A DNA stretch of 64,000 bases from Escherichia coli (GTDB lineage Bacteria > Pseudomonadota > Gammaproteobacteria > Enterobacterales > Enterobacteriaceae): NCBI RefSeq assembly GCF_030013595.1, contig NZ_CP122768.1; one strand, written 5' to 3'. The notes beneath the pieces were generated by a model. The model saw nothing but the letters and a program-made list of their open reading frames with translations, did not search any database and had not been told where the DNA came from. Below, one piece after another: positions 1-60,027 of the stretch. The stretch's first letter is position 1; each line of letters opens with the position of its first letter. Position numbers and translations under genes: made by a program.

Positions 1-161
1 TGGTTATCCAGAGGAACGCCACAATGAACCAGATGCAGCACAAGACAAACATGCGCGCACTCATGAGATAACCCGTAGTTTAATTTCGCTATAGCACATA
101 CGAAATCCCACTAATTCCCTGTCATTGCGCCCTATCGTCAGACAGACGATAGGGCATCGGG

Positions 162-1664
162 TTATTCCACCACCCACTGCGGATTTTTTGCCACTCTGCT
201 GCAATAGTTCTGGTAAATCGCCATCGCTAACAGCGAGAAGAAGACAGGGCCGCCAATCATCCACAATGTGCTGTCCCAGTCTCCGGCTTCAACCACAGGT
301 TGAATGATGGTGAAGACGTTCGCAAATGTCACAACCAGTACGACAACCACCGTCGCAATCATTGCCGACATACGCGTTTTGAAAATCACAAACGGTCTGT
401 CGAGATCCTGACGTGCTTTAAAGAATGGGAAAGCCAGCGCGAGGAACAAGTAAGGAAGCGTCATAGACACGTTCGCCATCAGAGTCAGTTTGTTAAAGAA
501 CGCCGATGCGGTGCCACCGCCAAACGAAACCAGCAGGATGAAGACAGTAACCAGCCCGCACTGCATCCACATGGCGATAGACGGCATACCCATCGTATTC
601 AGGCGCGTCATCGGTTCCGGCCACAATGCTTTCGGCGTTCCCTGGATGATGGCTTTCAGCGGTGAATAGCAAAGCGTAAAGAACGCACCGGTATAAGCGA
701 GGAACATCGAAAGCCCGGTAATACGCGCAAACCATACGCCCAGCGACAATGACGCTTCTGGTGACAAATGCAGTGCGTTACCCAGCGTCACCCCGAGGCT
801 CTTCATCAGCACATAGGTAATATTGCCGAGGTTAACGGAACCATTACTTAATACCTGCTGCCAGTTTGTGCTGACGCCCCATAAAAATATTGCCAGCGAA
901 TAACCGATTGAAATAACAATAGCGGCAAAAACAATACCTTTGGCAAAGTTCTTTTCTGGATTTTCCGTTTTATCGACCAGACCACCAACCGCTTCAATTC
1001 CGCCATAGGCAAAAATAGCAAATACCACAAACGATAGCATTGCCAGACCGGACTGATAACCCGGGTTCGGTGATGCAAGGAAATTAATATCCTGCGCGAA
1101 ATGCCCACCATTTAATAACAAAATAGTAATGCTTACTAACAGCAATACTAAATTCAGACACATTACTGCAATACCGCCCACCGCAGTAATGCGGGCAATT
1201 TTATTAATCCCTTTTGAAGCAACGACGGTGACCAGAATCATCCATGCCACTGCCAGCAGACCAACCACCTGCGTAGGCTCCAGTCCGGCAATATGCCAGT
1301 GCTGGGTCATGTCGCTACCATAGAGGAATGTTGAGAACGGTACCCAAACTTTCGCGGAGGTACTCACCATCCAGATGATATAAGAGGAAAACCACATAAA
1401 CGTACCAATGAAGGCAAAACGTGGTCCGACACTATTATTCATCCAGGAATAGATACCGCCTTCTTCTTTGCGATAAGCAGCTCCCATTTCAGCCATCATT
1501 AAGGCGAATGGAATAAAGAATAACAATGCAGAAAATATATAAAAGGGAATCGCACTATAACCCATTAAGTAATAAGCCGATGGGCTATTGGCAAATCCAA
1601 ATACGGAAGTAAAGATCATCAATATGAGTCCTATCAGACTCATCTTTTTTATCGTGTGAGGCAT
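162..1664 (-). CDS. yjeM: APC-superfamily amino acid/polyamine transporter YjeM
   Basis: Long hydrophobic multi-TM ORF; conserved position next to epmA; start set at MPHTIKK (500 codons) although the ORF extends to 1706. Confidence 0.8.
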   Translation of the reverse strand: MPHTIKKMSLIGLILMIFTSVFGFANSPSAYYLMGYSAIPFYIFSALLFFIPFALMMAEMGAAYRKEEGGIYSWMNNSVGPRFAFIGTFMWFSSYIIWMVSTSAKVWVPFSTFLYGSDMTQHWHIAGLEPTQVVGLLAVAWMILVTVVASKGINKIARITAVGGIAVMCLNLVLLLVSITILLLNGGHFAQDINFLASPNPGYQSGLAMLSFVVFAIFAYGGIEAVGGLVDKTENPEKNFAKGIVFAAIVISIGYSLAIFLWGVSTNWQQVLSNGSVNLGNITYVLMKSLGVTLGNALHLSPEASLSLGVWFARITGLSMFLAYTGAFFTLCYSPLKAIIQGTPKALWPEPMTRLNTMGMPSIAMWMQCGLVTVFILLVSFGGGTASAFFNKLTLMANVSMTLPYLFLALAFPFFKARQDLDRPFVIFKTRMSAMIATVVVVLVVTFANVFTIIQPVVEAGDWDSTLWMIGGPVFFSLLAMAIYQNYCSRVAKNPQWVVE

Positions 1665-1882
1665 GAAACCATCCTTCATTTCAGCGCGTGTATAAAACGC
1701 GCCCACTGAACTGCACTGCCCAACATTGAGCGGGCAGCGTAAAAACCAATACAGAATTGATACCTGGATGATATCAAATATCCAGTCTTAAATTGTGGCC
1801 TTTAGCGGAAAAATGAAAACATATGCTACAGAATGGCGCTTATCACGCCATTCTTCGCGGTTAATTCAGTAATTTTTCAGAA

Positions 1883-2860
1883 TTATGCCCGGTCAACGCT
1901 AAAGGCGATGACTTCAGCCAGTGTCTCCGCGCCCAGCGCCAACATCACCAGACGATCAACACCTAATGCCACGCCGGAACAGTCAGGCATACCGACTTTC
2001 AAGGCTTCAATCAGATTCTGGTCAATGGGGTGCTGCGGCAAACCGCGCGCCGCGCGCTTACGGTTATCTTGTTCAAAGCGTTGTTGCTGCTCACGGGCAT
2101 CCGTCAATTCATGGAAACCATTCGCCAGCTCAATACCTTTATAATAAACCTCAAAGCGTTCAGCGACCCGATGATCTTCGGTACTGATTTGCGCCAGTGA
2201 TGCCTGGCTGGCTGGAAAGTGGTACACAAAGGTCGGTTTTTCTTTGCCAATATTTGGCTCTACGCCAAAGGTAAACAGCAATTGTAGAAGCGTGTCGCGG
2301 TCTTCTTCAGTATCGGCAACGTTGCTCAAATCCAGTTTCGCTGCCACTTCCCGCAGTTGCGTTTTGTCGGCAGAGAGTGGGTCAATTTCCAGATAACGCA
2401 AGAAAGCTTGTTGATAAGAAAGGCTTTCTGCTGCCGGGCAGTCCAGCACTTGTTGTAAGAGATCGTCCACCTCGTTCATCAACCGGTACATATCATAGTG
2501 CGGTCGATACCACTCAAGCATAGTGAACTCAGGGTTGTGATAACGCCCCATCTCTTCATTACGGAAGCTGCGGCACAGCTGGAATACCGGCCCACAACCG
2601 GCAACCAGCAGGCGTTTCATATGGTATTCCGGGCTGGTCATTAACCAGAGATTCATCCCCTGCGAATGCCCAGGGCCAACGAAACGTGTCTCAAACGGGA
2701 CCAAATGAATATCGGTTACCGTCGCCTGGCTCATACAAGGCGTCTCCACCTCCAGCACTCCACGATCGGCAAAGAAACGACGGATCTCCGCCATAATCGC
2801 CGCGCGTTTTAATAAGTTAGGAATGGATGCGCTCGGCTGCCAGGATGCCGTTTCGCTCAT
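1883..2860 (-). CDS. epmA: EF-P beta-lysine ligase EpmA (PoxA/YjeA, class II LysRS paralogue)
   Basis: Translation recognised as EpmA; start set at MSETASW (325 aa), ORF track over-extends to 2905. Confidence 0.9.
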
Positions 2861-3184
2861 AGTTAAATCTCCAGTTTTTGACAAGGGCACGAAGTCTACT
2901 CGCAACGCGACGGCGAGACAAATTTTACGCAGGAATCAAACAAGGGTGGGCAGTGACTAAAAAAAGCACGATCTGATGGTTTAGTAATTAAATTAATCAT
3001 CTTCAGTGATAATTTAGCCCTCTTGCGCACTAAAAAAATCGATCTCGTCAAATTTCAGACTTATCCATCAGACTATACTGTTGTACCTATAAAGGAGCAG
3101 TGGAATAGCGTTCGCAGACCGTAACTTTCAGGCACTTACCCTGAAGTACGGGGCTGTGGGATAAAAACAATCTGGAGGAATGTC

Positions 3185-4985
3185 GTGCAAACCTTTCAAG
3201 CCGATCTTGCCATTGTAGGCGCCGGTGGCGCGGGATTACGTGCTGCAATTGCTGCCGCGCAGGCAAATCCAAATGCAAAAATCGCACTAATCTCAAAAGT
3301 ATACCCGATGCGTAGCCATACCGTTGCTGCAGAAGGGGGCTCCGCCGCTGTCGCGCAGGATCATGACAGCTTCGAATATCACTTTCACGATACAGTAGCG
3401 GGTGGCGACTGGTTGTGTGAGCAGGATGTCGTGGATTATTTCGTCCACCACTGCCCAACCGAAATGACCCAACTGGAACTGTGGGGATGCCCATGGAGCC
3501 GTCGCCCGGATGGTAGCGTCAACGTACGTCGCTTCGGCGGCATGAAAATCGAGCGTACCTGGTTCGCCGCCGATAAGACCGGCTTCCATATGCTGCACAC
3601 GCTGTTCCAGACCTCTCTGCAATTCCCGCAGATCCAGCGTTTTGACGAACATTTCGTGCTGGATATTCTGGTTGATGATGGTCATATTCGCGGCCTGGTA
3701 GCAATGAACATGATGGAAGGCACGCTGGTGCAGATCCGTGCTAACGCGGTCGTTATGGCTACCGGCGGTGCAGGTCGCGTTTATCGTTACAACACCAACG
3801 GCGGCATCGTTACCGGTGACGGTATGGGTATGGCGCTAAGCCACGGCGTTCCTCTGCGTGACATGGAATTCGTTCAGTATCACCCAACCGGTCTGCCCGG
3901 TTCCGGTATCCTGATGACAGAAGGCTGCCGCGGTGAAGGTGGTATTCTGGTCAACAAAAATGGCTACCGTTATCTGCAAGATTACGGCATGGGCCCGGAA
4001 ACTCCGCTGGGCGAGCCGAAAAACAAATATATGGAACTGGGGCCACGCGACAAAGTTTCTCAGGCCTTCTGGCACGAATGGCGTAAAGGCAACACCATCT
4101 CCACGCCGCGTGGCGATGTGGTTTATCTCGACCTGCGTCACCTCGGCGAGAAAAAACTGCATGAACGTCTGCCGTTCATCTGCGAACTGGCGAAAGCGTA
4201 CGTTGGCGTCGATCCGGTTAAAGAACCGATTCCGGTACGTCCGACCGCACACTACACCATGGGCGGTATCGAAACCGATCAGAACTGTGAAACCCGCATT
4301 AAAGGTCTGTTCGCCGTGGGTGAATGTTCCTCTGTTGGTCTGCACGGTGCAAACCGTCTGGGCTCCAACTCCCTGGCGGAACTGGTGGTCTTCGGTCGTC
4401 TGGCCGGTGAGCAAGCGACAGAGCGTGCAGCAACTGCTGGTAATGGCAACGAAGCGGCAATTGAAGCGCAGGCAGCTGGCGTTGAACAACGTCTGAAAGA
4501 TCTGGTTAACCAGGATGGCGGCGAAAACTGGGCGAAGATCCGCGACGAAATGGGCCTGGCTATGGAAGAAGGTTGCGGTATCTACCGTACGCCGGAACTG
4601 ATGCAGAAAACCATCGACAAGCTGGCTGAGCTGCAGGAACGCTTCAAGCGCGTGCGCATCACTGACACTTCCAGCGTGTTCAACACCGACCTGCTCTACA
4701 CCATTGAACTGGGCCACGGTCTGAACGTTGCTGAATGTATGGCGCACTCCGCAATGGCACGTAAAGAGTCCCGCGGCGCACACCAGCGTCTGGACGAAGG
4801 TTGCACCGAGCGTGACGACGTCAACTTCCTCAAACACACCCTCGCCTTCCGCGATGCTGATGGCACGACTCGCCTGGAGTACAGCGACGTGAAGATTACT
4901 ACGCTGCCGCCAGCTAAACGTGTTTACGGTGGCGAAGCGGATGCAGCCGATAAGGCGGAAGCAGCCAATAAGAAGGAGAAGGCGA

Positions 4986-4993
<8 letters not shown>
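3185..4993 (+). CDS. frdA: fumarate reductase flavoprotein subunit FrdA
   Basis: 602-aa ORF with N-terminal FAD-binding GAGGAG motif; full-length match to FrdA from memory; followed by frdBCD. Confidence 0.97.
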
Positions 4994-6126
<1,133 letters not shown>

Positions 6127-6136
6127 GGAGCCTGAG

Positions 6137-7692
<1,556 letters not shown>

Positions 7693-7780
7693 AATTTCAT
7701 CGGGTCCGAATTTTTGGACCTTTTCTCCGCTTTTCCTTGCTGTCATCTACAATTAGAAAAAAACCAGTAAGGAAACATTT

Positions 7781-8314
7781 ATGCGCCTGCTCCCTCTCGT
7801 TGCCGCAGCGACAGCTGCATTTCTGGTCGTTGCCTGCAGTTCTCCTACGCCGCCCCGTGGCGTGACCGTAGTGAATAATTTCGATGCTAAACGCTATCTC
7901 GGTACCTGGTATGAGATTGCCCGTTTTGATCACCGCTTTGAACGTGGACTGGAAAAAGTCACCGCAACATACAGCCTGAGGGATGATGGCGGCCTGAATG
8001 TCATTAATAAAGGCTATAACCCTGACAGAGAAATGTGGCAGCAGAGTGAAGGGAAAGCGTACTTTACCGGCGCACCAACTCGCGCTGCGCTGAAAGTGTC
8101 ATTCTTTGGTCCTTTCTATGGCGGTTATAACGTTATTGCACTCGATCGGGAATACCGCCATGCGCTGGTTTGCGGCCCGGACCGCGACTACCTGTGGATA
8201 CTCTCCCGCACGCCAACCATTTCTGACGAAGTGAAACAGGAGATGCTGGCAGTCGCGACCCGGGAAGGGTTTGATGTCAGTAAGTTTATTTGGGTACAAC
8301 AGCCCGGTAGTTAG
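7781..8314 (+). CDS. blc: outer-membrane lipocalin Blc
   Basis: 177 aa, lipoprotein signal with LVVACSS lipobox; conserved neighbour of ampC. Confidence 0.9.
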
Positions 8315-8628
8315 TGAGTGCTGAGTTTCAGACCAATAATCCCCAATACGATTAACGCCAGACTCGCCAGGCGCATCGGGTTAGCGGACTCGCCGAGCAG
8401 CACAATGCCGGTGATGGCCGCGCCGACTGCGCCAATACCCGTCCACACGGCATAAGCCGTCCCTACTGGTAACGATTTCATCGCCCAGGCAAGTAGCGCC
8501 ATACTGACAATCATCGCCGTCACGGTAATAACACTTGGCGTCAAACGACTAAAGCCGTGGGTATATTTCAGGCCAACGGCCCATACCACTTCCAGCAGAC
8601 CAGCAATAACTAAGATAATCCAGGACAT
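8311..8628 (-). CDS. sugE: SMR-family guanidinium/quaternary ammonium exporter SugE (Gdx)
   Basis: Four-TM small protein; start set at [10 protein letters not shown] (105 aa), ORF track over-extends. Confidence 0.88.
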
Positions 8629-8802
8629 ATCAGGCTCCGGAGAATTGGGGCCGTCCCCGGTGAAAAGAGGCGTTTGCAGGTCGTCCTGCAAAGCTGATGG
8701 TTGAACGGATATTTTGCCAGGTGGCAGGGGAATTTCAACTATTACCTTTGTGACTATCGCAAAAAAACAAACGGCACGACATAACTGTCGTACCGTTATT
8801 GC

Positions 8803-8949
8803 TTACTGCTGCGCTTTCGTTGCTGCGCCAGAAATCGCGTTACCGCCATCAGAAATGTCTTCACCAACGCCACGCGTGGTGTTGCAGGCAGTTAATACTG
8901 TTGAAAGCACCAGAACAGAAAAGATCGCTGCAATTGTCTTCTTCACCAT
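8803..8949 (-). CDS. ecnB: entericidin B lipoprotein
   Basis: 48-aa lipoprotein [48 protein letters not shown] read by hand from minus strand; not in ORF track because of its length. Confidence 0.85.
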
Positions 8950-9059
8950 AACGTCTTCCTTTTAGGTAATGTTATTTATGTTTGCCTATAGCAAATTAAT
9001 AATAGACAACATCACCAAAAATGATGGAAATCTGATGATTTTTCGGAAGAGAAGAAAAA

Positions 9060-9185
9060 TTAGCTGGCAGCGCGGGAGATGGAATTACCGAGATGTTTAA
9101 TGTCTTCACCAAAACCGCGAGCGGTGTTACAGCCCGTGAGCAGCGCACTGGCAAGCAAAACAAGAACGATAAGGCGTTTCATCAT
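9060..9185 (-). CDS. ecnA: entericidin A lipoprotein
   Basis: 41-aa lipoprotein MMKRLIVLVLLASALLTGCNTARGFGEDIKHLGNSISRAAS read by hand from minus strand. Confidence 0.85.
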   Translation of the reverse strand: MMKRLIVLVLLASALLTGCNTARGFGEDIKHLGNSISRAAS

Positions 9186-9236
9186 CTCTGACCTGAATAA
9201 GTGATGGTGCAGCCTGCAGGCCGCACCACAACCGCA

Positions 9237-9803
9237 TTACTTCACGCGAGAGACGTATTCACCAGAGCGGGTATCCACTTTGATGACTTCGCCGATTTGT
9301 ACAAACAGCGGAACTTTAACCACAGCGCCAGTAGACAGGGTAGCCGGTTTGCCGCCAGTACCTGCGGTATCACCTTTCAGGCCCGGATCGGTATCCACGA
9401 TTTCCAGTTCAACGAAGTTCGGCGGAGTAACGGAGATCGGCTGACCATTCCACAGAGTTACGATACACTCTGCCTGATCCAGCAGCCATTTCGCGTTGTC
9501 GCCAATTGCTTTTGCATCAGCAGACAGCTGCTCGAAAGTTTCGTTGTTCATGAAGTGCCAGAACTCACCGTCGTTGTACAGGTAAGTCAGGTTCATATCG
9601 ACAACATCAGCGCCTTCAGCGGAATCAGTAGATTTGAAGGTTTTTTCTACACGAGTACCGGTCAGCAGACGACGCAGTTTAACGCGAGCAAATGCCTGGC
9701 CTTTACCCGGTTTTACGAATTCACTCGCTTCAACCGCGTAAGGTTCGCCGTCTAACATGATTTTAAGACCAGCACGAAAATCGTTGCTATAGTACGTTGC
9801 CAT
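9237..9803 (-). CDS. efp: translation elongation factor P
   Basis: 188 aa, full-length match to EF-P including the modified-lysine loop region (PGKGQAF). Confidence 0.97.
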
Positions 9804-22455: not shown

Positions 22456-22561
22456 CAGAAACACAGAAAAGAAGCGATTTGCCGCAATCTTAAGCAGTTG
22501 AATCGCTTTTACTGAAATTAGGTTGACGAGATGTGCAGATTACGGTTTAATGCGCCCCGTT

Positions 22562-22637
22562 GCCCGGATAGCTCAGTCGGTAGAGCAGGGGATTGAAAAT
22601 CCCCGTGTCCTTGGTTCGATTCCGAGTCCGGGCACCA
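22562..22637 (+). tRNA. pheU: tRNA-Phe (anticodon GAA)
   Basis: 76-nt sequence GCCCGGATAGCTCAGTCGGTAGAGCAGGGGATTGAAAATCCCC...GGGCACCA with GAA anticodon loop and encoded CCA; whether this is the pheU or the identical pheV copy is inferred from the flanking yjdC/cadC context. Confidence 0.97.
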
Positions 22638-22650
22638 AATTCATATCAAC

Positions 22651-22678
22651 GGACCTCCACGGAGGTCCGTTTTTCGTT
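22651..22678 (+). terminator. putative terminator downstream of tRNA-Phe
   Basis: ggacctccacggaggtcc hairpin followed by gtttttcg. Confidence 0.5.
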
Positions 22679-22834
22679 TCAGAACACCATGATTTAAGTG
22701 TTCTTCCTCCAAATCAATTCTACCGAACTCAACCAAATTCTCCCCACATCAACCTCATTGTGTGGGTATAATTGCGGGTATACCCCAGTTCGACAGAATT
22801 TGTACCCTCTTTAACGCATTCAGAAGGCTGAACT

Positions 22835-24097
22835 ATGGCACTGACTGACGCAAAAATCCGGGCTGCAAAGCCCACTGACAAGGCTTATAAACTCACTGAC
22901 GGGGCCGGCATGTTCCTGCTGGTTCATCCTAATGGTTCCCGTTACTGGCGTCTCCGTTATCGTATTCTGGGTAAGGAGAAGACTCTGGCACTTGGTGTGT
23001 ATCCGGAAGTTTCTCTCTCCGAAGCTCGTACAAAACGGGATGAGGCCCGAAAACTGATTTCAGAGGGGATTGACCCTTGCGAACAGAAAAGAGTTAAAAA
23101 AGTTGTCCCTGATTTACAGCTCTCTTTTGAACATATTGCACGACGCTGGCATGCCAGTAATAAACAATGGGCACAATCACACAGCGATAAAGTACTCAAA
23201 AGCCTCGAGACACACGTTTTCCCCTTTATCGGCAACCGGGATATCACAACACTCAATACCCCGGACCTGCTTATCCCTGTTCGTGCTGCAGAAGCAAAAC
23301 AAATTTATGAAATCGCCAGTCGTCTGCAGCAAAGAATATCTGCTGTAATGCGTTATGCCGTACAGTCTGGCATCATCAGATATAACCCGGCTCTGGATAT
23401 GGCTGGTGCATTGACCACGGTAAAACGCCAGCATCGCCCTGCTCTGGATCTTTCACGCCTGCCTGAACTTCTGTCGCGTATTGACGGTTATAAAGGCCAG
23501 CCTGTCACCCGACTGGCAGTTATGCTGAATTTACTGGTTTTTATTCGTTCCAGTGAACTCAGATATGCCCGCTGGTCTGAAATTGATATTGACAATGCCA
23601 TGTGGACTATTCCAGCCGAACGCGAACCTCTGCCAGGCGTAAAATTTTCATACCGGGGCTCCAAGATGCGAACACCACATCTTGTGCCACTCAGCCAACA
23701 GGCTGTAGCCATACTGGCAGAACTTCAGACATGGGCAGGTGAAAATGGTCTGATCTTTACGGGAGCACATGACCCACGTAAACCAATCAGTGAAAACACC
23801 GTAAATAAAGCCCTGAGGGTTATGGGGTATGACACAACCCAGGATGTCTGTGGTCATGGATTCCGGGCGATGGCATGTAGTGCATTAATAGAATCAGGTT
23901 TGTGGTCCCGCGATGCTGTGGAACGCCAGATGAGCCATCAGGAGCGTAATGGTGTACGTGCTGCGTATATCCATAAAGCCGAACATCTGGAAGAACGTCG
24001 ACTTATGCTACAGTGGTGGGCAGATTTTCTGGATGCGAACAGAGAACAATGTATCAGCCCGTTTGAATATGCAAAGATTAACAATCCATTAAAATAG
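22835..24097 (+). CDS. P4-type tyrosine integrase (island integrase)
   Basis: 420 aa; N-terminal MALTDAKIRAAKPTDKAYKLTDGAGMFLLVHPNGSRYWRLRYR arm-binding domain and C-terminal HGFRAMACSAL catalytic region typical of CP4/P4 integrases; sits directly 3' of a tRNA gene. Confidence 0.9.
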   Translation: MALTDAKIRAAKPTDKAYKLTDGAGMFLLVHPNGSRYWRLRYRILGKEKTLALGVYPEVSLSEARTKRDEARKLISEGIDPCEQKRVKKVVPDLQLSFEHIARRWHASNKQWAQSHSDKVLKSLETHVFPFIGNRDITTLNTPDLLIPVRAAEAKQIYEIASRLQQRISAVMRYAVQSGIIRYNPALDMAGALTTVKRQHRPALDLSRLPELLSRIDGYKGQPVTRLAVMLNLLVFIRSSELRYARWSEIDIDNAMWTIPAEREPLPGVKFSYRGSKMRTPHLVPLSQQAVAILAELQTWAGENGLIFTGAHDPRKPISENTVNKALRVMGYDTTQDVCGHGFRAMACSALIESGLWSRDAVERQMSHQERNGVRAAYIHKAEHLEERRLMLQWWADFLDANREQCISPFEYAKINNPLK

Positions 24098-24282: not shown

Positions 24283-24780
24283 TTATTGATAGTGTTTTAT
24301 GTTCAGATAATGCCCGATGACCTTGTCATGCAGCTCCACCGATTTTGAGAACGACAGTGACTTCCGTCCCAGCCTTGCCAGATGTTGTCTCAGATTATGT
24401 CGCTCAATGCGCTGAGTGTAACGCTTGCTGATAACGTGCAGCTTTCCCTTCAGGCGTGATTCATACAGCGGCCAGCCATCCGTCATCTATACCACGACCT
24501 CAAAGGCCGACAGCAGGCTCAGAATACGCTCCAGTGTGGCCAGAGTGCGTTCACCGAAGACGTGCGCCACAACCGTCCTCCGTATCCTGTCATACGCGTA
24601 AAACAGCCAGCGCTGACGTGATTTAGCACCGACGTAGCCCCACTGTTCGTCCATTTCAGCGCAGACAATCACATCACTGCCCGGTTGTATGCGCGAGGTT
24701 ACCGACTGCGGCCTGAGTTTTTTAAGTGACGTAAAACCGTGTTGAGGCCAACGCCCATAATGCGTGCACTGGCGCGACAT
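24283..24780 (-). pseudogene. insB: IS1 insB, disrupted
   Basis: Split into 97-aa and 67-aa ORFs by a premature stop where copy B has Trp (VVV*MTDGW), and HNLRQ instead of HNLNLRQ. Confidence 0.8.
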
Positions 24781-24974
24781 CCGACGCCATTCATGGCCAT
24801 ATCAATGATTTTCTGGTGCTTACCGGGCTGAGAGGCGGTGTAAGTGAACTGTAGTTGCCATGTTTTACGGCAATGAGAGCAGAGATAGCGCTGATGTCCG
24901 GCAGTGCTTTTGCCGTTACGCACCACGCCTTCAGTAGCGGAGCAGGAAGGACATCTGATGGAAATGGAAGCCAC
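24699..24974 (-). CDS. insA: IS1 InsA
   Basis: 91-aa zinc-finger/HTH protein [23 protein letters not shown]... Confidence 0.9.
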
Positions 24975-25194
24975 GCAAGCACCTTAAAATCACCATCATA
25001 CACTAAATCAGTAAGTTGGCAGCATTACCGAAATCCCCATCCTTTAGGGCAGTGAGAATGTCAATAATAGCAGACCACATCATGAGTCATTTTGACCGAC
25101 ACATGCAGAAGCAGAGGCTCCATCCCATTTTATACCTACCCTATAACACTTAGAAAAACAACATGTTAAAAATGTCTATTGGAAACAATTTTAT

Positions 25195-32042: not shown

Positions 32043-32810
32043 ATGACTTTACGAACTGAAAATCTGACGGTCAGTTACGGGACAGACAAGGTACTTAACG
32101 ACGTTTCACTCTCACTGCCAACGGGGAAGATCACCGCCCTGATCGGTCCTAACGGTTGCGGGAAATCGACGCTGTTAAACTGTTTTTCGCGGCTTTTAAT
32201 GCCGCAGTCTGGCACCGTATTTCTCGGCGATAATCCCATAAATATGCTCTCATCGCGCCAGTTGGCCCGCAGGCTTTCGCTGCTGCCTCAGCACCATTTA
32301 ACGCCAGAGGGGATCACAGTCCAGGAGCTGGTTTCGTATGGTCGTAATCCCTGGCTGTCACTCTGGGGGCATCTCTCCGCTGAAGACAATGCACGAGTTA
32401 ATGTCGCCATGAACCAGACCCGGATTAATCATCTTGCCGTTCGTCGGTTAACCGAGCTTTCCGGCGGTCAGCGCCAGCGCGCATTTCTGGCGATGGTCCT
32501 GGCCCAGAATACGCCCGTTGTATTACTTGATGAACCAACCACCTATCTTGATATCAATCACCAGGTGGACCTGATGCGGTTGATGGGCGAACTCCGGACT
32601 CAGGGGAAAACGGTGGTCGCTGTGCTGCACGACCTTAATCAGGCTAGCCGGTACTGCGATCAACTGGTGGTAATGGCAAACGGGCATGTTATGGCGCAAG
32701 GCACACCAGAAGAGGTGATGACCCCAGGATTGCTGAGAACAGTATTCAGCGTGGAAGCGGAAATACACCCCGAGCCGGTATCTGGCAGGCCGATGTGCCT
32801 AATGAGGTAG
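32043..32810 (+). CDS. fecE: ferric citrate ABC ATPase FecE
   Basis: 255 aa with Walker A GPNGCGKST and ABC signature LSGGQRQR. Confidence 0.95.
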   Translation: MTLRTENLTVSYGTDKVLNDVSLSLPTGKITALIGPNGCGKSTLLNCFSRLLMPQSGTVFLGDNPINMLSSRQLARRLSLLPQHHLTPEGITVQELVSYGRNPWLSLWGHLSAEDNARVNVAMNQTRINHLAVRRLTELSGGQRQRAFLAMVLAQNTPVVLLDEPTTYLDINHQVDLMRLMGELRTQGKTVVAVLHDLNQASRYCDQLVVMANGHVMAQGTPEEVMTPGLLRTVFSVEAEIHPEPVSGRPMCLMR

Positions 32811-33347
32811 ATTGCACAGGCCGTAAGAACCAAACCACGACTGAATGAAACTGGACTGGCGCCAGCAAGCCAGTTCAGACTGGGGCTGAACTTTTCCGGA
32901 CTCTGAAAGATTACCAATACTCATCGTCCATCCGCTTGCTTTAGGCTGACAGGTTCATAATCAACGCAAACCAGAGCTGTACAGGCTTGGGCGCGGCTTT
33001 CAAACCAGTCGTGATCACGGCAATCAATTTTGAACTCTGCTTAACGGACATTTCTGTATAACCCTTACGGCAACGAAAAACGCGAAGTTAAAATTTTAGA
33101 AACCCAAAAACGTGACATGACTAAGTTTAGATTTCAGGGGGGAGATCAAAAAATTTCGCTCTGTGCCAGAGCGGACATTCATGGAGCTGGTTCATTACCA
33201 ATGAGGTTGGGCTTTTGAGGATAAATCAATGATCAGACGCCAACGTAAATCAAAAGCAACCCTGGAACGGAATTGCTAATCCAGTTTCTGACCATCGATT
33301 TTTCTAAAAAGTGTGCGTTTGCTACTACTTAGGTAGGTGCAGCTTTC

Positions 33348-34662
33348 TTAATCACCGGCAGCCACGCTGGTCTGTTTACTGTCGTACTTACTGGTGTCCT
33401 GCTGGCTGCTTATCAGCAGGTCGTGGCCCACATCGGCGATAATCCTGTTGCCGTTGACCTGAGCACCGTTCAGTACCGTATCCCGACCACTGTTGATGGT
33501 GACGGTTTTACCGCTGTCTGTTGTGGTTTCAGTCCACTCAGTACCGTTACCTTTCTCGCTGCCTTTTGCCGCATTAACGCTGGCAAAGACGCTGATACCG
33601 GCACCGTTACCACCGGCACCGATACTGACACCCACGCCACCGCCAGCCCCGGTTATCAATGGTGCTGAGGTAGTCACTCCATGAATACGTGTAATCCACC
33701 AGGGTATAGCCATACGGCAGACTGACACCGGCGGCAAAATTCCTCGCATCATGTGACACCGAAAAGTCACTGCTCCGTCCCCCGCTGACAAACCAGTTGT
33801 CAGCCAGCCCCAGAGGATTATTAAAGGAAAGGACACCATTTAACTGCCCCGTACCGGTATTCTTCTGCCCGCTGTTGTCGATGCCCACGCTCCCTGTGAC
33901 TGGCCATTCCGGCAATGCCGTCAGTGTCACCACCGACCATCCCTCACGGTCACCGGGCGATATTTCAATCTGTACCGGTTCCGTACGCAGACGATTAATC
34001 TGCTCCATCCCCTGCTCAATATCCCGCAGGTTCAGAACCTTCCCCTCCATTCCCGGGAAAACCATCTTCAGGGTGCGGGCAGGAAGGTCAGCGCCTTCCG
34101 CCCGGATTTGCTGCAGCCTGCCTTCCATGACCGTTATGTGCAGTACGCCCCCTGAAAGGTCCTGCTCTGTCAGAAAGGCCCGGCTGGTGATATATCCCCG
34201 GCGTATATAGCCGTCCGTCACGGCATCCGTGACCGCAGTCAGGCCGGTGATATTCAGACACTGATTCACCCACGGTGCCACCAGTCTGTCGGTTTCTGCA
34301 GACGTCAGTCGGGTGGCCCCACTGACAACAATGCGTGACACCGTAAAGCAGGGGCCTTCAGTACCGGCAGACGTTTCCGGAGACGGCGTGATAGTCAGCG
34401 GCGCACTGCGCTCCAGCGCATCACGCTGATGCTGGTTTTCATCCAGCAACTGCTGCTGTTGCTGCTGAATTGCACTGCGGTCACCCGGAGACAGCATGGC
34501 TGCCGGAGACGAAAATGCGGGGATAAAAAAACCAGAAAAAACGGAGAGGGAGAGATAGCATATCCACGGAGAGCCACGCCGGAACATATCACAACAGGGG
34601 ACAGACAACGCACGGGATAAAAGGGACGTTTTCGTCAGAATGTTGTTCTGCCGGCGCTGCAT
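33348..34662 (-). pseudogene. two-partner-secretion locus remnant: truncated TpsB (ShlB/FhaC/CdiB-family) transporter plus out-of-frame glycine-rich hemagglutinin-like fragment
   Basis: 351-aa ORF has signal-peptide region, poly-Gln stretch and POTRA-like N-terminal half but ends prematurely; an overlapping 163-aa ORF in another frame is Gly/Thr/Asn-rich like TpsA passenger repeats. Confidence 0.6.
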
Positions 34663-35177
34663 GTTCTCCCCGTATTCTGGCCTGTGTGATGCCAGTGTAA
34701 ATTCATGTCAAAAAGTGTCAGCGAGAAAATTTACACCTGAAAAAGTCTGTCATGAAACAGTTTTATGACAAGACATCAAAAAAATGTCAAAAACGTGATC
34801 TTTCTTCAGCTTTTCAGAATATTGAGTACCAGGAAGTCAATATCAATTCTGGGACACATATGCATTTACCATTAAAACCGGGCACAACAAGCTGTTCAGT
34901 CTCAATCCATACCCCGTGTTTTATCAATATCAGAATAAGAATATCTGCGGATAAATAAAAAAGGAATGTCGAGGGAGCTTACCGCAGAGGGCTCTCCACC
35001 TCACAAACCATTTACAAAAATGATACCGGCATATCTTTGGTCCCTGTCACAACCAGACATTGACAATCCAATATAACCCCAAATATATTTCGGGTAAGAA
35101 GTCTGGGATTTATACAGATATACTGTCTGTTATTACTATTTAATTATATAATTGTATTGCATACATAAGAGGCACTA

Positions 35178-35567
35178 ATGAAACGTTATATAAAATGGTT
35201 TGCCATCACAATTTTTATCAGTATGTTGAGTGCCTGTGCCCGTACGGCCCCAGTGCAACAGATAAGCACCACTGTCAGTGTGGGTCATACTCAGGAGCAG
35301 GTTAAAAATGCCATTTTGAAAGCAGGTGCGCAGCGCAAGTGGATTATGACGCAAGTGTCCCCTGGAGTTATTAAAGCTCGCTATCAAACACGAAATCACG
35401 TTGCAGAGGTTCGTATTACATATACAGCTACCTACTATAACATCAAATATGACAGTAGCCTGAATCTGCAGGCTTCTGATGGAAAAATTCATAAAAACTA
35501 TAACCGCTGGGTGCGTAACCTAGATAAAGATATACAGGTTAACTTATCTACAGGAGCAACGTTATAG
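35178..35567 (+). CDS. apeA: small lipoprotein, first gene of the APE-type cluster
   Basis: 129 aa with lipobox ISMLSAC; sits 64 bp upstream of the methyltransferase gene; symbol assigned by gene order in the published ape nomenclature. Confidence 0.6.
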   Translation: MKRYIKWFAITIFISMLSACARTAPVQQISTTVSVGHTQEQVKNAILKAGAQRKWIMTQVSPGVIKARYQTRNHVAEVRITYTATYYNIKYDSSLNLQASDGKIHKNYNRWVRNLDKDIQVNLSTGATL

Positions 35568-52340: not shown

Positions 52341-52784
52341 ATGTTAAAAAATCTATTAAATACAGAGGTCGTTCAGGTCGTGGAACAGGTCAAAGACTGG
52401 CGGGAAGCCGTGGCGATTTCATGCCGACCGTTGATTGAAAACGGCTCTATCGAACCGCGTTATGTTGATGCGATCTATCACTCGCACGACACTATCGGTC
52501 CGTACTATGTGGTTGGCCCTGGTATTGCGATGCCTCATGCGCGCCCGGAAGAGGGGGCTAACAAGCTGTCATTAGCACTGACCCTGATCCCTTCAGGTGT
52601 GAATTTTGATGCCGATGAAAACGATCCAGTGAAATTACTGATTGTGCTGGCTGCAACCGACAGTACCAGCCACATTGAAGCGATTTCTCAACTCGCCAAG
52701 TTATTCGATAACGAAAAAGACATACAGGCCATTTTGACGGCCAAAACGACGCAGGACATTTTGTCTGTTATTGCGCGCTATTAA
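52341..52784 (+). CDS. PTS EIIA component (PTS_EIIA_2 type)
   Basis: 147 aa, phosphorylatable His in GIAMPHARP. Confidence 0.8.
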   Translation: MLKNLLNTEVVQVVEQVKDWREAVAISCRPLIENGSIEPRYVDAIYHSHDTIGPYYVVGPGIAMPHARPEEGANKLSLALTLIPSGVNFDADENDPVKLLIVLAATDSTSHIEAISQLAKLFDNEKDIQAILTAKTTQDILSVIARY

Positions 52785-52799
52785 TCCAGAGGAACATTT

Positions 52800-53087
52800 A
52801 TGAAAATTACAGTGGTTTGCGGTAACGGCTTAGGCACCAGCCTGATGATGGAAATGAGCATTAAAAGCATTTTGAAGGATTTGTCCGTCAGCGCTGATGT
52901 TGATCACGTCGACCTGGGCTCCGCGAAAGGGACGCCGAGTGATATCTATGTCGGCACCAAAGACATTGCCGAGCAGTTAGCCGCGCAGTCTGTCGCAGGC
53001 AAAATCGTCGCACTGGAAAATATGATTGATAAGAAAGCCATGAGAGAACGTTTGTCCGTGGTATTAACCGAATTAGGCGCACTGTAA
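52800..53087 (+). CDS. PTS EIIB component (ascorbate/SgaB-like)
   Basis: 95 aa, active-site Cys in VVCGNGLGTS. Confidence 0.8.
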   Translation: MKITVVCGNGLGTSLMMEMSIKSILKDLSVSADVDHVDLGSAKGTPSDIYVGTKDIAEQLAAQSVAGKIVALENMIDKKAMRERLSVVLTELGAL

Positions 53088-53099
53088 GCTGGGGGCGAT

Positions 53100-54356
53100 A
53101 TGGATTTCTTTCGTTTTTTGATGAGCGATGTACTTTCCGAACCCGCAGTGCTGGTCGGTTTAATCGCCCTGATTGGCCTGATTGCACAGAAAAAACCGGT
53201 AACCGAATGCATTAAAGGTACCGTCAAGACCATTATGGGGTTTGTGATTTTAGGCGCAGGGGCGGGTTTAGTTGTGTCGTCACTGGGTGACTTCGCAAAC
53301 ATTTTCCAGCATGCCTTTGGTATTCAGGGTGTAGTGCCGAACAATGAAGCCATTGTTTCCGTAGCGCAGAAAAGCTTCGGGAAAGAAATGGCGATGATTA
53401 TGTTCTTTGCGATGGTTATCAACATTATGATTGCCCGTTTCACACCGTGGAAATTTATCTTCCTGACCGGTCATCACACGTTGTTTATGTCGATGATGGT
53501 AGCGGTAATTCTGGCAACAGCAGGCATGACCGGCATTACGCTTATAGCCGTTGGCTCTTTGGTTGTTGGCGTGGCAATGGTCTTTTTCCCGGCTATTGCG
53601 CATCCGTACATGAAGAAAGTGACCGGTTCTGATGACGTTGCCATCGGCCACTTCTCAACATTATCTTATGTATTGGCCGGTTTCATCGGCAGCAAGTTTG
53701 GTAATAAAGAGCACTCGACTGAAGACATGAATGTGCCGAAAAGTCTGCTGTTCTTGCGCGACACGCCGGTTGCTATCTCTTTTACCATGAGCATAATTTT
53801 CCTGGTGACGTGCCTGTTTGCGGGTGCAGATGCGGTGAAAGAGCTTAGCGGTGGTAAAAACTGGTTCATGTTCTCTATCATGCAATCCATTACCTTCGCA
53901 GCTGGCGTGTACATCATTCTGCAGGGTGTGCGCATGGTGATTGCGGAGATTGTCCCGGCATTCAAAGGTATTTCAGACAAGCTGGTTCCGAATGCCAGAC
54001 CTGCTCTCGATTGCCCGGTCGTCTTCCCTTACGCACCTAACGCTGTACTGGTTGGTTTCCTGAGTAGCTTTGCTGCAGGTTTAATCGGTATGTTCACGTT
54101 GTATCTGCTGAACATGATCGTGATTATTCCTGGTGTGGTGCCGCACTTCTTCGTAGGTGCAGCTGCAGGGGTATTCGGTAATGCAACGGGTGGACGTCGT
54201 GGTGCGATTTTGGGTGCCTTCGCTCAGGGCTTGCTTATTACCTTCCTGCCAGTATTCTTATTGCCGGTGCTGGGTGATATTGGTTTTGCTAACACCACCT
54301 TCAGTGATGCTGACTTTGGCGCACTGGGTATTTTGTTAGGGATTATCGTTCGCTAA
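53100..54356 (+). CDS. PTS EIIC permease (ascorbate/UlaA-SgaT family)
   Basis: 418 aa polytopic membrane protein directly after EIIB. Confidence 0.8.
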   Translation: MDFFRFLMSDVLSEPAVLVGLIALIGLIAQKKPVTECIKGTVKTIMGFVILGAGAGLVVSSLGDFANIFQHAFGIQGVVPNNEAIVSVAQKSFGKEMAMIMFFAMVINIMIARFTPWKFIFLTGHHTLFMSMMVAVILATAGMTGITLIAVGSLVVGVAMVFFPAIAHPYMKKVTGSDDVAIGHFSTLSYVLAGFIGSKFGNKEHSTEDMNVPKSLLFLRDTPVAISFTMSIIFLVTCLFAGADAVKELSGGKNWFMFSIMQSITFAAGVYIILQGVRMVIAEIVPAFKGISDKLVPNARPALDCPVVFPYAPNAVLVGFLSSFAAGLIGMFTLYLLNMIVIIPGVVPHFFVGAAAGVFGNATGGRRGAILGAFAQGLLITFLPVFLLPVLGDIGFANTTFSDADFGALGILLGIIVR

Positions 54357-58540: not shown

Positions 58541-58572
58541 ATTGGAACCAATAACTGGGTAATGACTCCAAC

Positions 58573-59076
58573 TTACTGATAGTGTTTTATGTTCAGATAA
58601 TGCCCGATGACCTTGTCATGCAGCTCCACCGATTTTGAGAACGACAGTGACTTCCGTCCCAGCCTTGCCAGATGTTGTCTCAGATTCAGGTTATGCCGCT
58701 CAATGCGCTGAGTATAACGCTTGCTGATAACGTGCAGCTTTCCCTTCAGGCGTGATTCATACAGCGGCCAGCCATCCGTCATCCATACCACGACCTCAAA
58801 GGCCGACAGCAGGCTCAGAAGACGCTCCAGTGTGGCCAGAGTGCGTTCACCGAAGACGTGCGCCACAACCGTCCTCCGCATCCTGTCATACGCGTAAAAC
58901 AGCCAGCGCTGACGTGATTTAGCACCGACGTAGCCCCACTGTTCGTCCATTTCAGCGCAGACAATCACATCACTGCCCGGTTGTATGCGCGAGGTTACCG
59001 ACTGCGGCCTGAGTTTTTTAAGTGGCGGAAAATCGTGTTGAGGCCAACGCCAATAATGCGTGCACTGGCGCGACAT
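58573..59076 (-). CDS. insB: IS1 InsB (expressed as InsAB' by frameshifting)
   Basis: 167-aa ORF overlapping insA in the -1 frame. Confidence 0.85.
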
Positions 59077-59270
59077 CCGACGCCATTCATGGCCATATCA
59101 ATGATTTTCTGGTGCGTACCGGGCTGAGAGGCGGCGTAAGTGAACTGTAGTTGCCATGTTTTACGGCAGTGAGAGCAGAGATAGCGCTGATGTCCGGCGG
59201 TGCTTTTGCCGTTACGCACCACCCCGTCAGTAGCTGAACAGGAGGGACAGCTGATAGAAACAGAAGCCAC
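58995..59270 (-). CDS. insA: IS1 InsA
   Basis: 91-aa [23 protein letters not shown]... Confidence 0.9.
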
Positions 59271-59325
59271 TGGAGCACCTCAAAAACACCATCATACACT
59301 AAATCAGTAAGTTGGCAGCATCACC

Positions 59326-60027
59326 GACAATGCAGATGGTTCAACCATGCTGGATAAACGTTATGTCATCACTAACGGTAATCAGCTGGCGATTCAAAAT
59401 GATTTACTGGAGAGTTTATCAAAAGCGTTAAACCAACCGTGGCCACAACGAATGCAGGAGATGCTCCAGCAAATTTTGCCTCATCGTGGTGCGTTATTAA
59501 CTAATTTTTATCAGGCACATGATTATTTACTGCATGGCGATGATAAATCATTGAACCGTGCCAGTGAATTATTAGGTGAGATTGTTCAATCATCCCCAGA
59601 ATTTACCTACGCGAGAGCAGAAAAAGCATTAGTTGATATCGTGCGCCATTCTCAACATCCTTTAGATGAAAAACAATTAGCAGCACTGAACACAGACATA
59701 GATAACATTGTTACACTACCGGAATTGAATAACCTGTCCATTATATATCAAATAAAAGCGGTCAGTGCTCTGGTAAAAGGTAAAACAGATGAGTCTTACC
59801 AGGCGATAAATACTGGCATTGATCTTGAAATGTCCTGGCTAAATTATGTGTTGCTTGGCAAGGTTTATGAAATGAAGGGGATGAACCGGGAAGCAGCTGA
59901 TGCATATCTCACCGCCTTTAATTTACGCCCAGGGGCAAACACCCTTTACTGGATTGAAAATGGTATATTCCAGACTTCTGTTCCTTATGTTGTACCTTAT
60001 CTCGACAAATTTCTCGCTTCAGAATAA
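59326..60027 (+). pseudogene. cadC: cadC 3' fragment (C-terminal periplasmic sensor domain only), truncated by IS1
   Basis: Reading frame continues from the IS1 boundary and ends ...NTLYWIENGIFQTSVPYVVPYLDKFLASE, the CadC C-terminus; the N-terminal DNA-binding and TM regions are absent. Confidence 0.85.

Follow-up and report, generated by a model that had tools for sequence, protein, structure and literature searches.

Organization of the locus

Two overlapping ORFs in different frames were found on the minus strand at 33348-34662 of the window (the whole 64-kb stretch of Escherichia coli DNA analysed here). These ORFs extend over 33607-34662 (351 aa) and 33348-33839 (163 aa). In this region, a cdiB gene is kept for its first 343 codons only, and a 98-codon piece of the CdiA stalk follows in another frame. 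The GC content of the remnant is about 57%, compared with 36-46% on either side. The features of the region and the evidence for them are:

32811..33354, unannotated 3' flank of the fec module, not derived from cdi (99.4% identity to K-12 downstream of fecE)
33355..33366, junction 2 (cdiA/fec flank), a 12-bp microhomology CCGGCAGCCACG (three-way alignment of the window, K-12 and BH100)
33355..33645, minus strand, cdiA fragment, 98 codons of FHA-2 (Fil_haemagg_2) without N- and C-termini (Pfam PF13332, DNA identity, RefSeq)
33597..33625, 15-bp tandem duplication in the Gly-rich cdiA fragment, ACCGGCACCGTTAC / ACCGGCACCGATAC (repeat search; 15-bp length difference)
33607..33633, minus strand, out-of-frame tail of the truncated cdiB ORF, 8 codons (GCQYRCRW) and then a stop (ORF translation, frame arithmetic)
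33634..33645, junction 1 (cdiB/cdiA), a 12-bp microhomology ACGCCACCGCCA (three-way base-by-base alignment)
33634..34662, minus strand, cdiB 5' remnant, codons 1-343 of 590 (Pfam, 6WIM alignment, tblastn, RefSeq pseudogene)
34663..35177, minus strand, retained upstream intergenic region of cdiB (AT-rich, GC 36-41%, collinear with intact loci)

The initial annotation had placed the locus between fec and an APE-type cluster, which proved correct: fecE ends at 32810, and an aryl-polyene-like cluster (methyltransferase, KS/CLF, ACPs, ApeI/ApeP dehydratases, LolA and MMPL) starts at 35178/35632. The surrounding island (22514 onward) shares 99.8% identity with ETEC H10407, and only the island matches that strain. 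Several complete genomes, ETEC H10407 among them, match the segment 32800-35200 with 100% identity. Positions 1-22513 are the pheU neighbourhood (frd-ampC-efp-groESL-aspA-dcuA-cutA-dsbD-dicD), which is collinear with the O141:H4 strain P13-6 and shows 99.1% identity in the core flank. The sole tRNA in the window is a tRNA-Phe at 22562-22637. A structured RNA near the scar was also considered; the Rfam scan of 32700-35300 gave only chance-level matches and no family, and this candidate was rejected.

The E. coli cdi loci sit on islands at pheV, leuX, selC and aspV, with displaced orphan fragments (Ruhe et al. 2016, PMC4927057). The present island resembles these in its P4-type integrase, the tRNA-Phe, the mosaic cargo, and the location of cdi beside an aryl-polyene-like cluster; whereas it lies at pheU (dicD side), and its cdi locus is a 1.3-kb scar.

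The truncated cdiB gene

The 351-aa ORF had been assigned the N-terminal features of a ShlB/FhaC/CdiB transporter, and the domain searches bore this out. Pfam matched POTRA_2 at residues 106-181 (E=1e-25) and POTRA_3 at residues 184-236 (E=3.4e-19). The crystal structure of CdiB from E. coli EC93 (PDB 6WIM) aligned with E=3e-191, the query residues 55-344 corresponding to 3-292 of 538 in the chain, and the identity was about 98% over CdiB-Ec residues 3-291. In tblastn, residues 1-343 of the 590-aa BH100 CdiB mapped to 34662-33634 with 97% identity (97.1% aa), and residues 1-343 of the OkiPb01713 CdiB were 99.7% identical to the stub at the amino acid level. The homology to TPS proteins is therefore very strong by Pfam, tblastn and the 6WIM alignment, and the concern that BLASTX might find none can be set aside.

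The remnant covers the signal peptide, the H1 helix, both POTRA domains, and roughly strands 1-5 of the 16 barrel strands. The signal peptide was called by eye, solely from the hydrophobic N-terminus. The residue numbering was checked with an offset of 52, which reproduces R10, Q14, S34, A35, R161, E164, E168 and Q214 of Guerin 2020; the numbering of that study is therefore transferable to the remnant. Like the EC93 CdiB (6WIM; Guerin et al. 2020, PMC7644211), the remnant has the H1 plug helix and the linker (aligned to 6WIM from chain residue 3), POTRA1, POTRA2, and the β-1 DxxG motif (D210-N-S-G213). Unlike the EC93 CdiB, it lacks β-6 to β-16, loop 5, loop 6 and the β-13 motif, and it ends with the 8-residue frameshift tail. 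The last native residue is R291 (CdiB-Ec mature numbering), which precedes the β-6 residue R309. The landmarks of EC93 CdiB include β-6 R309, β-7 K314, β-8 R340, L6 R421 and β-12 E455 (PMC7644211); β-6, β-7, β-8, loop 5, loop 6, β-12 and the β-13 motif all fall past the breakpoint. The loop 6 (V/I)RG(F/Y) and β-13 (F/G)xDxG lid-lock also lies there, and its sequence is absent.

The suggestion that the transporter stops well short of its normal length was also correct, since only codons 1-343 of 590 remain and the ShlB barrel model was matched only at positions 1-99 of 311 (E=7e-24). A complete 16-stranded barrel was not found. Since tblastn revealed no DNA for CdiB residues 344-590 in any frame of the window, no frameshift correction, which had been named as a possible refutation, can restore a full-length transporter. 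With about 5 of 16 barrel strands, the stub product cannot form a TpsB pore or fold as an Omp85 barrel. The tail arises where the cdiB frame runs on into cdiA sequence, and it stops at 33607. In H10407, the identical cdiB sequence is the RefSeq pseudogene ETEC_RS17210 (ShlB/FhaC/HecB family, 'missing C-terminus').

The upstream region 34663..35177 is 100% identical to that of 2013C-4974 and 96.7-99.8% identical to other intact loci, and it presumably contains the cdiB promoter. The σ70-like matches in it (34846-34818, 34721-34694 and 34701-34674) are weak only and are not informative. In some carriers of the scar, IS3-family and ISEc43 insertions are located just upstream of the cdiB stub.

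The cdiA fragment

The cdiA fragment is read in a different frame from the cdiB remnant. The 163-aa ORF had been thought to resemble TpsA passenger repeats, and this holds for residues 66-158, which match PF13332 (Fil_haemagg_2) with E=3.7e-26 at profile positions 77-169 of 170; whereas the first ~65 residues are spurious, being cdiB sequence read out of frame. BH100 CdiA residues 2458-2555 of 3111 mapped to 33647-33354 with 98% identity in tblastn, and the DNA identity to the BH100 cdiA is 99.3%. The identity to the main CdiA of OkiPb01713 is only 67% at the amino acid level; the fragment is collinear with the orphan fragment of OkiPb01713 instead. These tblastn matches map both the CdiB and the CdiA pieces, and they agree with the earlier view of a deletion-fused remnant of a toxin-delivery locus, here a TPS locus of the CDI type. 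The surviving passenger piece is CdiA FHA-2 (PF13332), and the original system was therefore CDI (cdiB and cdiA) rather than a ShlA-type haemolysin.

The E. coli CdiA class has the architecture FHA-1/RBD/YP/FHA-2/PT-VENN/CT, for example BH100 WP_158638469.1 with an Ntox25 toxin. The present fragment shares with BH100 CdiA 98 residues in the last Fil_haemagg_2 stretch of FHA-2. In contrast to BH100 CdiA, only about 3% of the protein is left, and it has no TPS domain, receptor-binding domain, PT-VENN, toxin, start codon or cdiI. The TPS secretion domain (PF05860) occupies residues 36-288 in the intact relatives, and both intact CdiAs matched only the 98-residue FHA-2 piece. The junction with the fec flank cuts the fragment at the equivalent of residue 2555, about 335 residues upstream of PT-VENN. 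The cdiA frame then enters the fec-flank DNA and stops at 33348-33350 (...SVAAGD*). The CdiA receptor-binding region is absent from the whole 64-kb window. The search for orphan cdiA-CT/cdiI modules that had been recommended left none within the window: the PT-VENN, CT and CdiI sequences of BH100 or OkiPb01713 gave no tblastn match, and no [VAL]ENN-type motif was found in the six frames. In RefSeq, the cdiA piece is the pseudogene ETEC_RS17205 (hemagglutinin repeat-containing, 'missing N-terminus and C-terminus').

The locus once was an E. coli CDI system typical of its class, with two-partner secretion by CdiB/CdiA/CdiI, and it is no longer a functional member of the class, because the defining CdiB and CdiA features that were looked for are missing. 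All that secretion, target recognition, toxicity or immunity would require has been lost, namely the barrel and loop 6, the TPS domain and receptor-binding region of CdiA, its PT-VENN/CT, and cdiI; we therefore infer that the scar is inert and retains no residual function.

Related loci and distribution

An intact locus at the same position was found in BH100, where it adjoins the same aryl-polyene-like cluster. It encodes a CdiB of 590 aa, a CdiA of 3111 aa (TPS, Fil_haemagg_2, PT-VENN and Ntox25 domains) and a putative CdiI of 151 aa, together with orphan modules. The TPS, FHA-2, PT-VENN and toxin domains are present in the intact relatives; whereas the window lacks TPS, PT-VENN and toxin domains.

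A 401-bp query across both junctions was searched in 5,426 complete E. coli genomes. Both junctions were found in 26 of the 5,426, junction 2 alone in two (2013C-4974 and OkiPb01713), and junction 1 alone in none. The identical scar of the 26 genomes is carried by islands at both pheU and pheV. The carriers include ETEC H10407-like strains, O141:H4, O103:H2 and O121, and RefSeq PGAP annotates both pieces as pseudogenes in every inspected carrier.

The gene order in OkiPb01713 and 2013C-4974 is pheV, integrase, IS1 remnant, fecIRABCDE, junction 2, cdiA fragment, cdiI (putative), cdiA, cdiB and the APE cluster. The locus of OkiPb01713 is intact (cdiB 590 aa, cdiA 3259 aa, putative cdiI 78 aa), and in 2013C-4974 both cdiB and cdiA are frameshifted. 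The two pre-deletion genomes match the window with 99.4-99.7% identity on either side of the scar (OkiPb01713: 99.4% left, 99.6% right). The fec-adjacent fragment in these genomes corresponds to about residues 2289-2555 of the BH100 cdiA (95-98% DNA identity); whereas it shares only 66-74% DNA identity and 67% protein identity with the resident main cdiA. The piece is therefore an orphan-type fragment of another cdiA allele, displaced downstream of cdiI. OkiPb01713 and 2013C-4974 are cousins of the window and not its ancestors: in both, ISEc8 (with an 8-bp target duplication) splits the orphan fragment, and the sequence duplicated at 33597..33625 is single-copy.

Orphan cdiA-CT/cdiI modules downstream of cdiBAI were reportedly described by Poole and co-workers in 2011. 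The fragment in OkiPb01713 and 2013C-4974 is like the orphan modules (Ruhe et al. 2016, PMC4927057) in that it has the same orientation as a complete cdiBAI, lies just downstream of its cdiI, and belongs to another allele; in the window, where the upstream cdiBAI is deleted, the orphan status of the piece is likely from the shared junction 2 and the flank identity. It is unlike them in that only FHA-2 is kept and the VENN/toxin/immunity part is replaced by the fec module. The presumed orphan of the window would also have lost its 5' part.

Anatomy of the two junctions

On the minus strand, the 12-mer of junction 1 reads TGGCGGTGGCGT (TGG CGG TGG CGT). It encodes WRWR at codons 340-343 of cdiB, and it supplies Gly codons in the cdiA frame. 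The window has one copy of this 12-mer. OkiPb01713 and 2013C-4974 have exactly two in direct orientation, of which the first lies within the orphan fragment and the other within cdiB, with a spacing of 13,868 bp in OkiPb01713 and 13,727 bp in 2013C-4974.

The parents of junction 2 are a K-12-type flank and an intact cdiA. The same 12 bp CCGGCAGCCACG occur in the fec-module 3' flank and in cdiA, where they belong to the codons for S-V-A-A-G. The K-12-type flank, which occurs in about 2,709 genomes, is collinear with the window as far as 33366. In K-12, the 12-mer abuts the stop codon of yjhV, which encodes only the C-terminal 85 aa of a protein with an NAD(P)-binding domain and is 79% identical to Pantoea genes. 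The K-12 sequence beyond the junction showed no match in cdi loci. Since this continuation belongs to an unrelated gene, being the 3' end of one for an NAD(P)-binding-domain protein, the K-12 flank represents the unrearranged parent and the window is the recombinant. Another reading, in which the K-12 12-mer is left over from a cdiA and yjhV is an orphan cdiI, was ruled out by the identity of yjhV as an NAD(P)-binding-domain fragment.

An IS-mediated origin of the junctions was rejected as well: the IS3-family copies that some carriers have are located upstream of where cdiB starts, and the end of IS911/ISEc52 in K-12 sits 330 bp beyond junction 2.

The probability that a random junction would have an ambiguity of at least 12 bp is about 6e-7. 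The mere sharing of a 12-mer between the parents is unremarkable, for 35% of the fec-flank shuffles share at least one with the cdi locus, and there are 3 or 4 real shared 12-mer sites per parental pair. Because both junctions sit on 12-bp identities, which would hardly be expected of random breakpoints, the data indicate that both were made by short-homology-directed illegitimate recombination. Efficient RecA-dependent exchange in E. coli requires more than 12 bp. As judged from the scar alone, the molecular route was probably independent of RecA, by slippage or annealing at the 12-bp repeats.

Proposed history of the locus

The locus at 33348-34662 is very probably an inert scar of a cdiBAI operon on a tRNA-Phe genomic island, left by two successive illegitimate recombinations at 12-bp short homologies. 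The ancestral order, as the relatives show, was the APE cluster, cdiB, cdiA, cdiI, and an orphan fragment of a BH100-like cdiA allele starting near residue 2289. In the first event (junction 2), recombination at CCGGCAGCCACG probably joined the 3' flank of fecIRABCDE to the orphan fragment, which cut the orphan at the equivalent of residue 2555 and removed the old-island DNA beyond it. In the second event (junction 1), a deletion probably occurred between the direct copies of ACGCCACCGCCA in cdiB (codons 340-343) and in the orphan fragment. It would have taken out codons 344-590 of cdiB, all of the main cdiA, cdiI, and the orphan fragment's 5' part. The deletion would amount to 13.9 kb when measured against OkiPb01713; without ISEc8, in case it had not yet been inserted, the figure falls to about 11.4 kb (the spacing minus the 2,442 bp of ISEc8 including its duplication). 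The outcome would be a cdiB stub with about 5 of the 16 strands, which runs out of frame into 98 CdiA FHA-2 codons and stops after 8 codons.

Since both junctions occur in 26 genomes, junction 2 only in two, and junction 1 only in none, the best reconstruction is that junction 2 preceded junction 1. The surviving passenger piece most likely came from the orphan fragment and not from the cdiA that was partnered with the cdiB stub, because OkiPb01713 shares the fec junction and carries the first 12-mer twice in direct orientation.

A simpler history without an orphan was also weighed. The fec junction might first have cut a single BH100-like cdiBAI short at CdiA residue 2555, and an internal deletion of 8.1 kb, from cdiB codon 343 to codon 2458 of the main cdiA, would then have produced the scar. 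Both the history and this deletion span seem unlikely. The fragment is indeed 99.3% identical to the main cdiA of BH100, which also carries both 12-mers in register, 8,141 bp apart. However, junction 2 is shared by common descent with OkiPb01713 and 2013C-4974, where it lies on an orphan downstream of a complete divergent cdiA and cdiI. The stub and its upstream region are also closer to these two genomes (99.2-100% DNA, 99.7% aa) than to BH100 (96.7-97.3% DNA, 97.1% aa). The orphan origin is therefore preferred on this evidence.

It is highly improbable that the stub is functional as a periplasmic H1-POTRA1-POTRA2 decoy, chaperone or regulator, or that the region has been kept because the divergent APE cluster has regulatory DNA there. 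In 26 carriers of several serotypes, the start codon, the signal peptide, the upstream region and the 343 native codons have stayed intact, with 99-100% conservation, and the later IS insertions lie ahead of the ORF and not within it. However, the whole island is near-identical (~1 mismatch per 1-2 kb), which points to recent common descent and not to selection. The window also contains neither a cognate TpsA substrate nor a cdiA TPS domain, and a five-strand fragment cannot fold as an Omp85 barrel. The sister loci in 8178 and 2013C-4974 have independent cdiB/cdiA frameshifts, which suggest that the cdi locus decays readily.

A related conjecture, likewise very doubtful, is that the truncated cdiB is expressed as a periplasmic or misassembled product and has been co-opted, or that the scar marks a decayed island that moved between pheU and pheV after the loss of CDI. 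Modulation of envelope stress or of Bam/TPS traffic are examples of what an expressed stub might do. If the movement after CDI loss were true, it would speak against the view that islands of this kind are stabilised by CDI 'surveillance'.

That an intact transporter is hidden by a frameshift in the sequencing or by misassembly over the haemagglutinin repeats can practically be dismissed: Gly-rich repeats and the 15-bp tandem duplication do adjoin the junction, but the 401-bp junction-spanning sequence is identical in 26 independently assembled complete genomes, and the missing part of cdiB is absent from every frame of the window.

Significance of the scar

Both pieces are already pseudogenes in RefSeq, and decayed or mosaic cdi loci with orphans on tRNA islands are described in the literature; a locus of this kind is thus already known. 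New here are the base-level structure of both microhomology junctions, the sequenced pre-deletion relatives, and the likely orphan origin of the passenger piece. The value of the locus is modest: it is a clean and resolved example of the erasure of a 10-kb toxin-delivery system, in which all the parents of the junctions are found in sequenced relatives. The carriers of the scar no longer have cdiI and are predicted to be sensitive to the CDI toxin made by relatives whose system is still in place. The scar could also be used as a lineage marker across serotypes and at two tRNA-Phe sites.

Sites of the island and possible transfer of its cargo

The integrase-IS1-fec-cdi scar-APE island includes the fec module, the cdi scar (a truncated cdiB fused out of frame to a cdiA fragment) and an aryl-polyene-like (APE) cluster, and was found at both tRNA-Phe sites. 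The pheU site is occupied in the window, P13-6, O121 WL1277 and O103:H2 CEC12044; the pheV site carries the same island in H10407, TW10828, WS0115A and 90-9280. The tRNA end of the island in the window includes:

22562-22637, tRNA-Phe
22835-24097, integrase

The mismatches between the window and H10407 are concentrated in the first ~1 kb past the tRNA-Phe (region 22514-23500), and the integrase alleles of the two also differ. Together with the two sites of insertion, these differences suggest that recombination moved the cargo from one resident Phe-tRNA island to another at a time when the cdi locus was already decayed.

A second IS1-like stretch (58543-59331) is ~95% identical to the IS1 pseudogene adjoining fecI (~24284-24975); the fec-cdi-APE-PTS segment is therefore flanked on both sides by IS1-related sequences. 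Downstream of the APE cluster, PTS IIA/IIC genes are broken by IS150 and IS100 in H10407, and both elements are absent from the window at ~52536-53568.

Variation within and around the cdi locus

Decay of the cdi locus also occurred independently in other strains. The cdiB of strain 8178 is frameshifted, and its cdiA is truncated and frameshifted; both genes are frameshifted in 2013C-4974 and both intact in its near-twin OkiPb01713. Inside the Gly-rich cdiA fragment of the scar is a short repeat:

33597-33625, 15-bp tandem duplication (ACCGGCACCGTTAC / ACCGGCACCGATAC)

Only one copy of this unit is present in 2013C-4974 and OkiPb01713, and the duplication is a small slippage polymorphism.

The region upstream of cdiB (~34750 in the window) is the site of later IS insertions in some scar carriers. 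An IS3-family element lies upstream of the cdiB start in ETEC1731, DEC9B and 7_33_46A, and ISEc43 plus an IS3-family element in O103:H2 strains. Between this region and the first APE-like gene, a methyltransferase, all loci inspected contain a further ORF, for which a Pfam search returned zero matches:

35178-35567 (+), ORF of 129 aa whose N-terminus is lipoprotein-like (…ISMLSAC…)

On the fec side lies a stretch without annotation:

32811-33366, 556 bp downstream of fecE

This stretch is kept in ~2,709 E. coli genomes. It is directly followed in K-12 (positions 4557-4814 of locus L003) by yjhV, which encodes the C-terminal 85 aa of a NAD(P)-binding-domain protein and shares 79% identity with Pantoea agglomerans plasmid genes.
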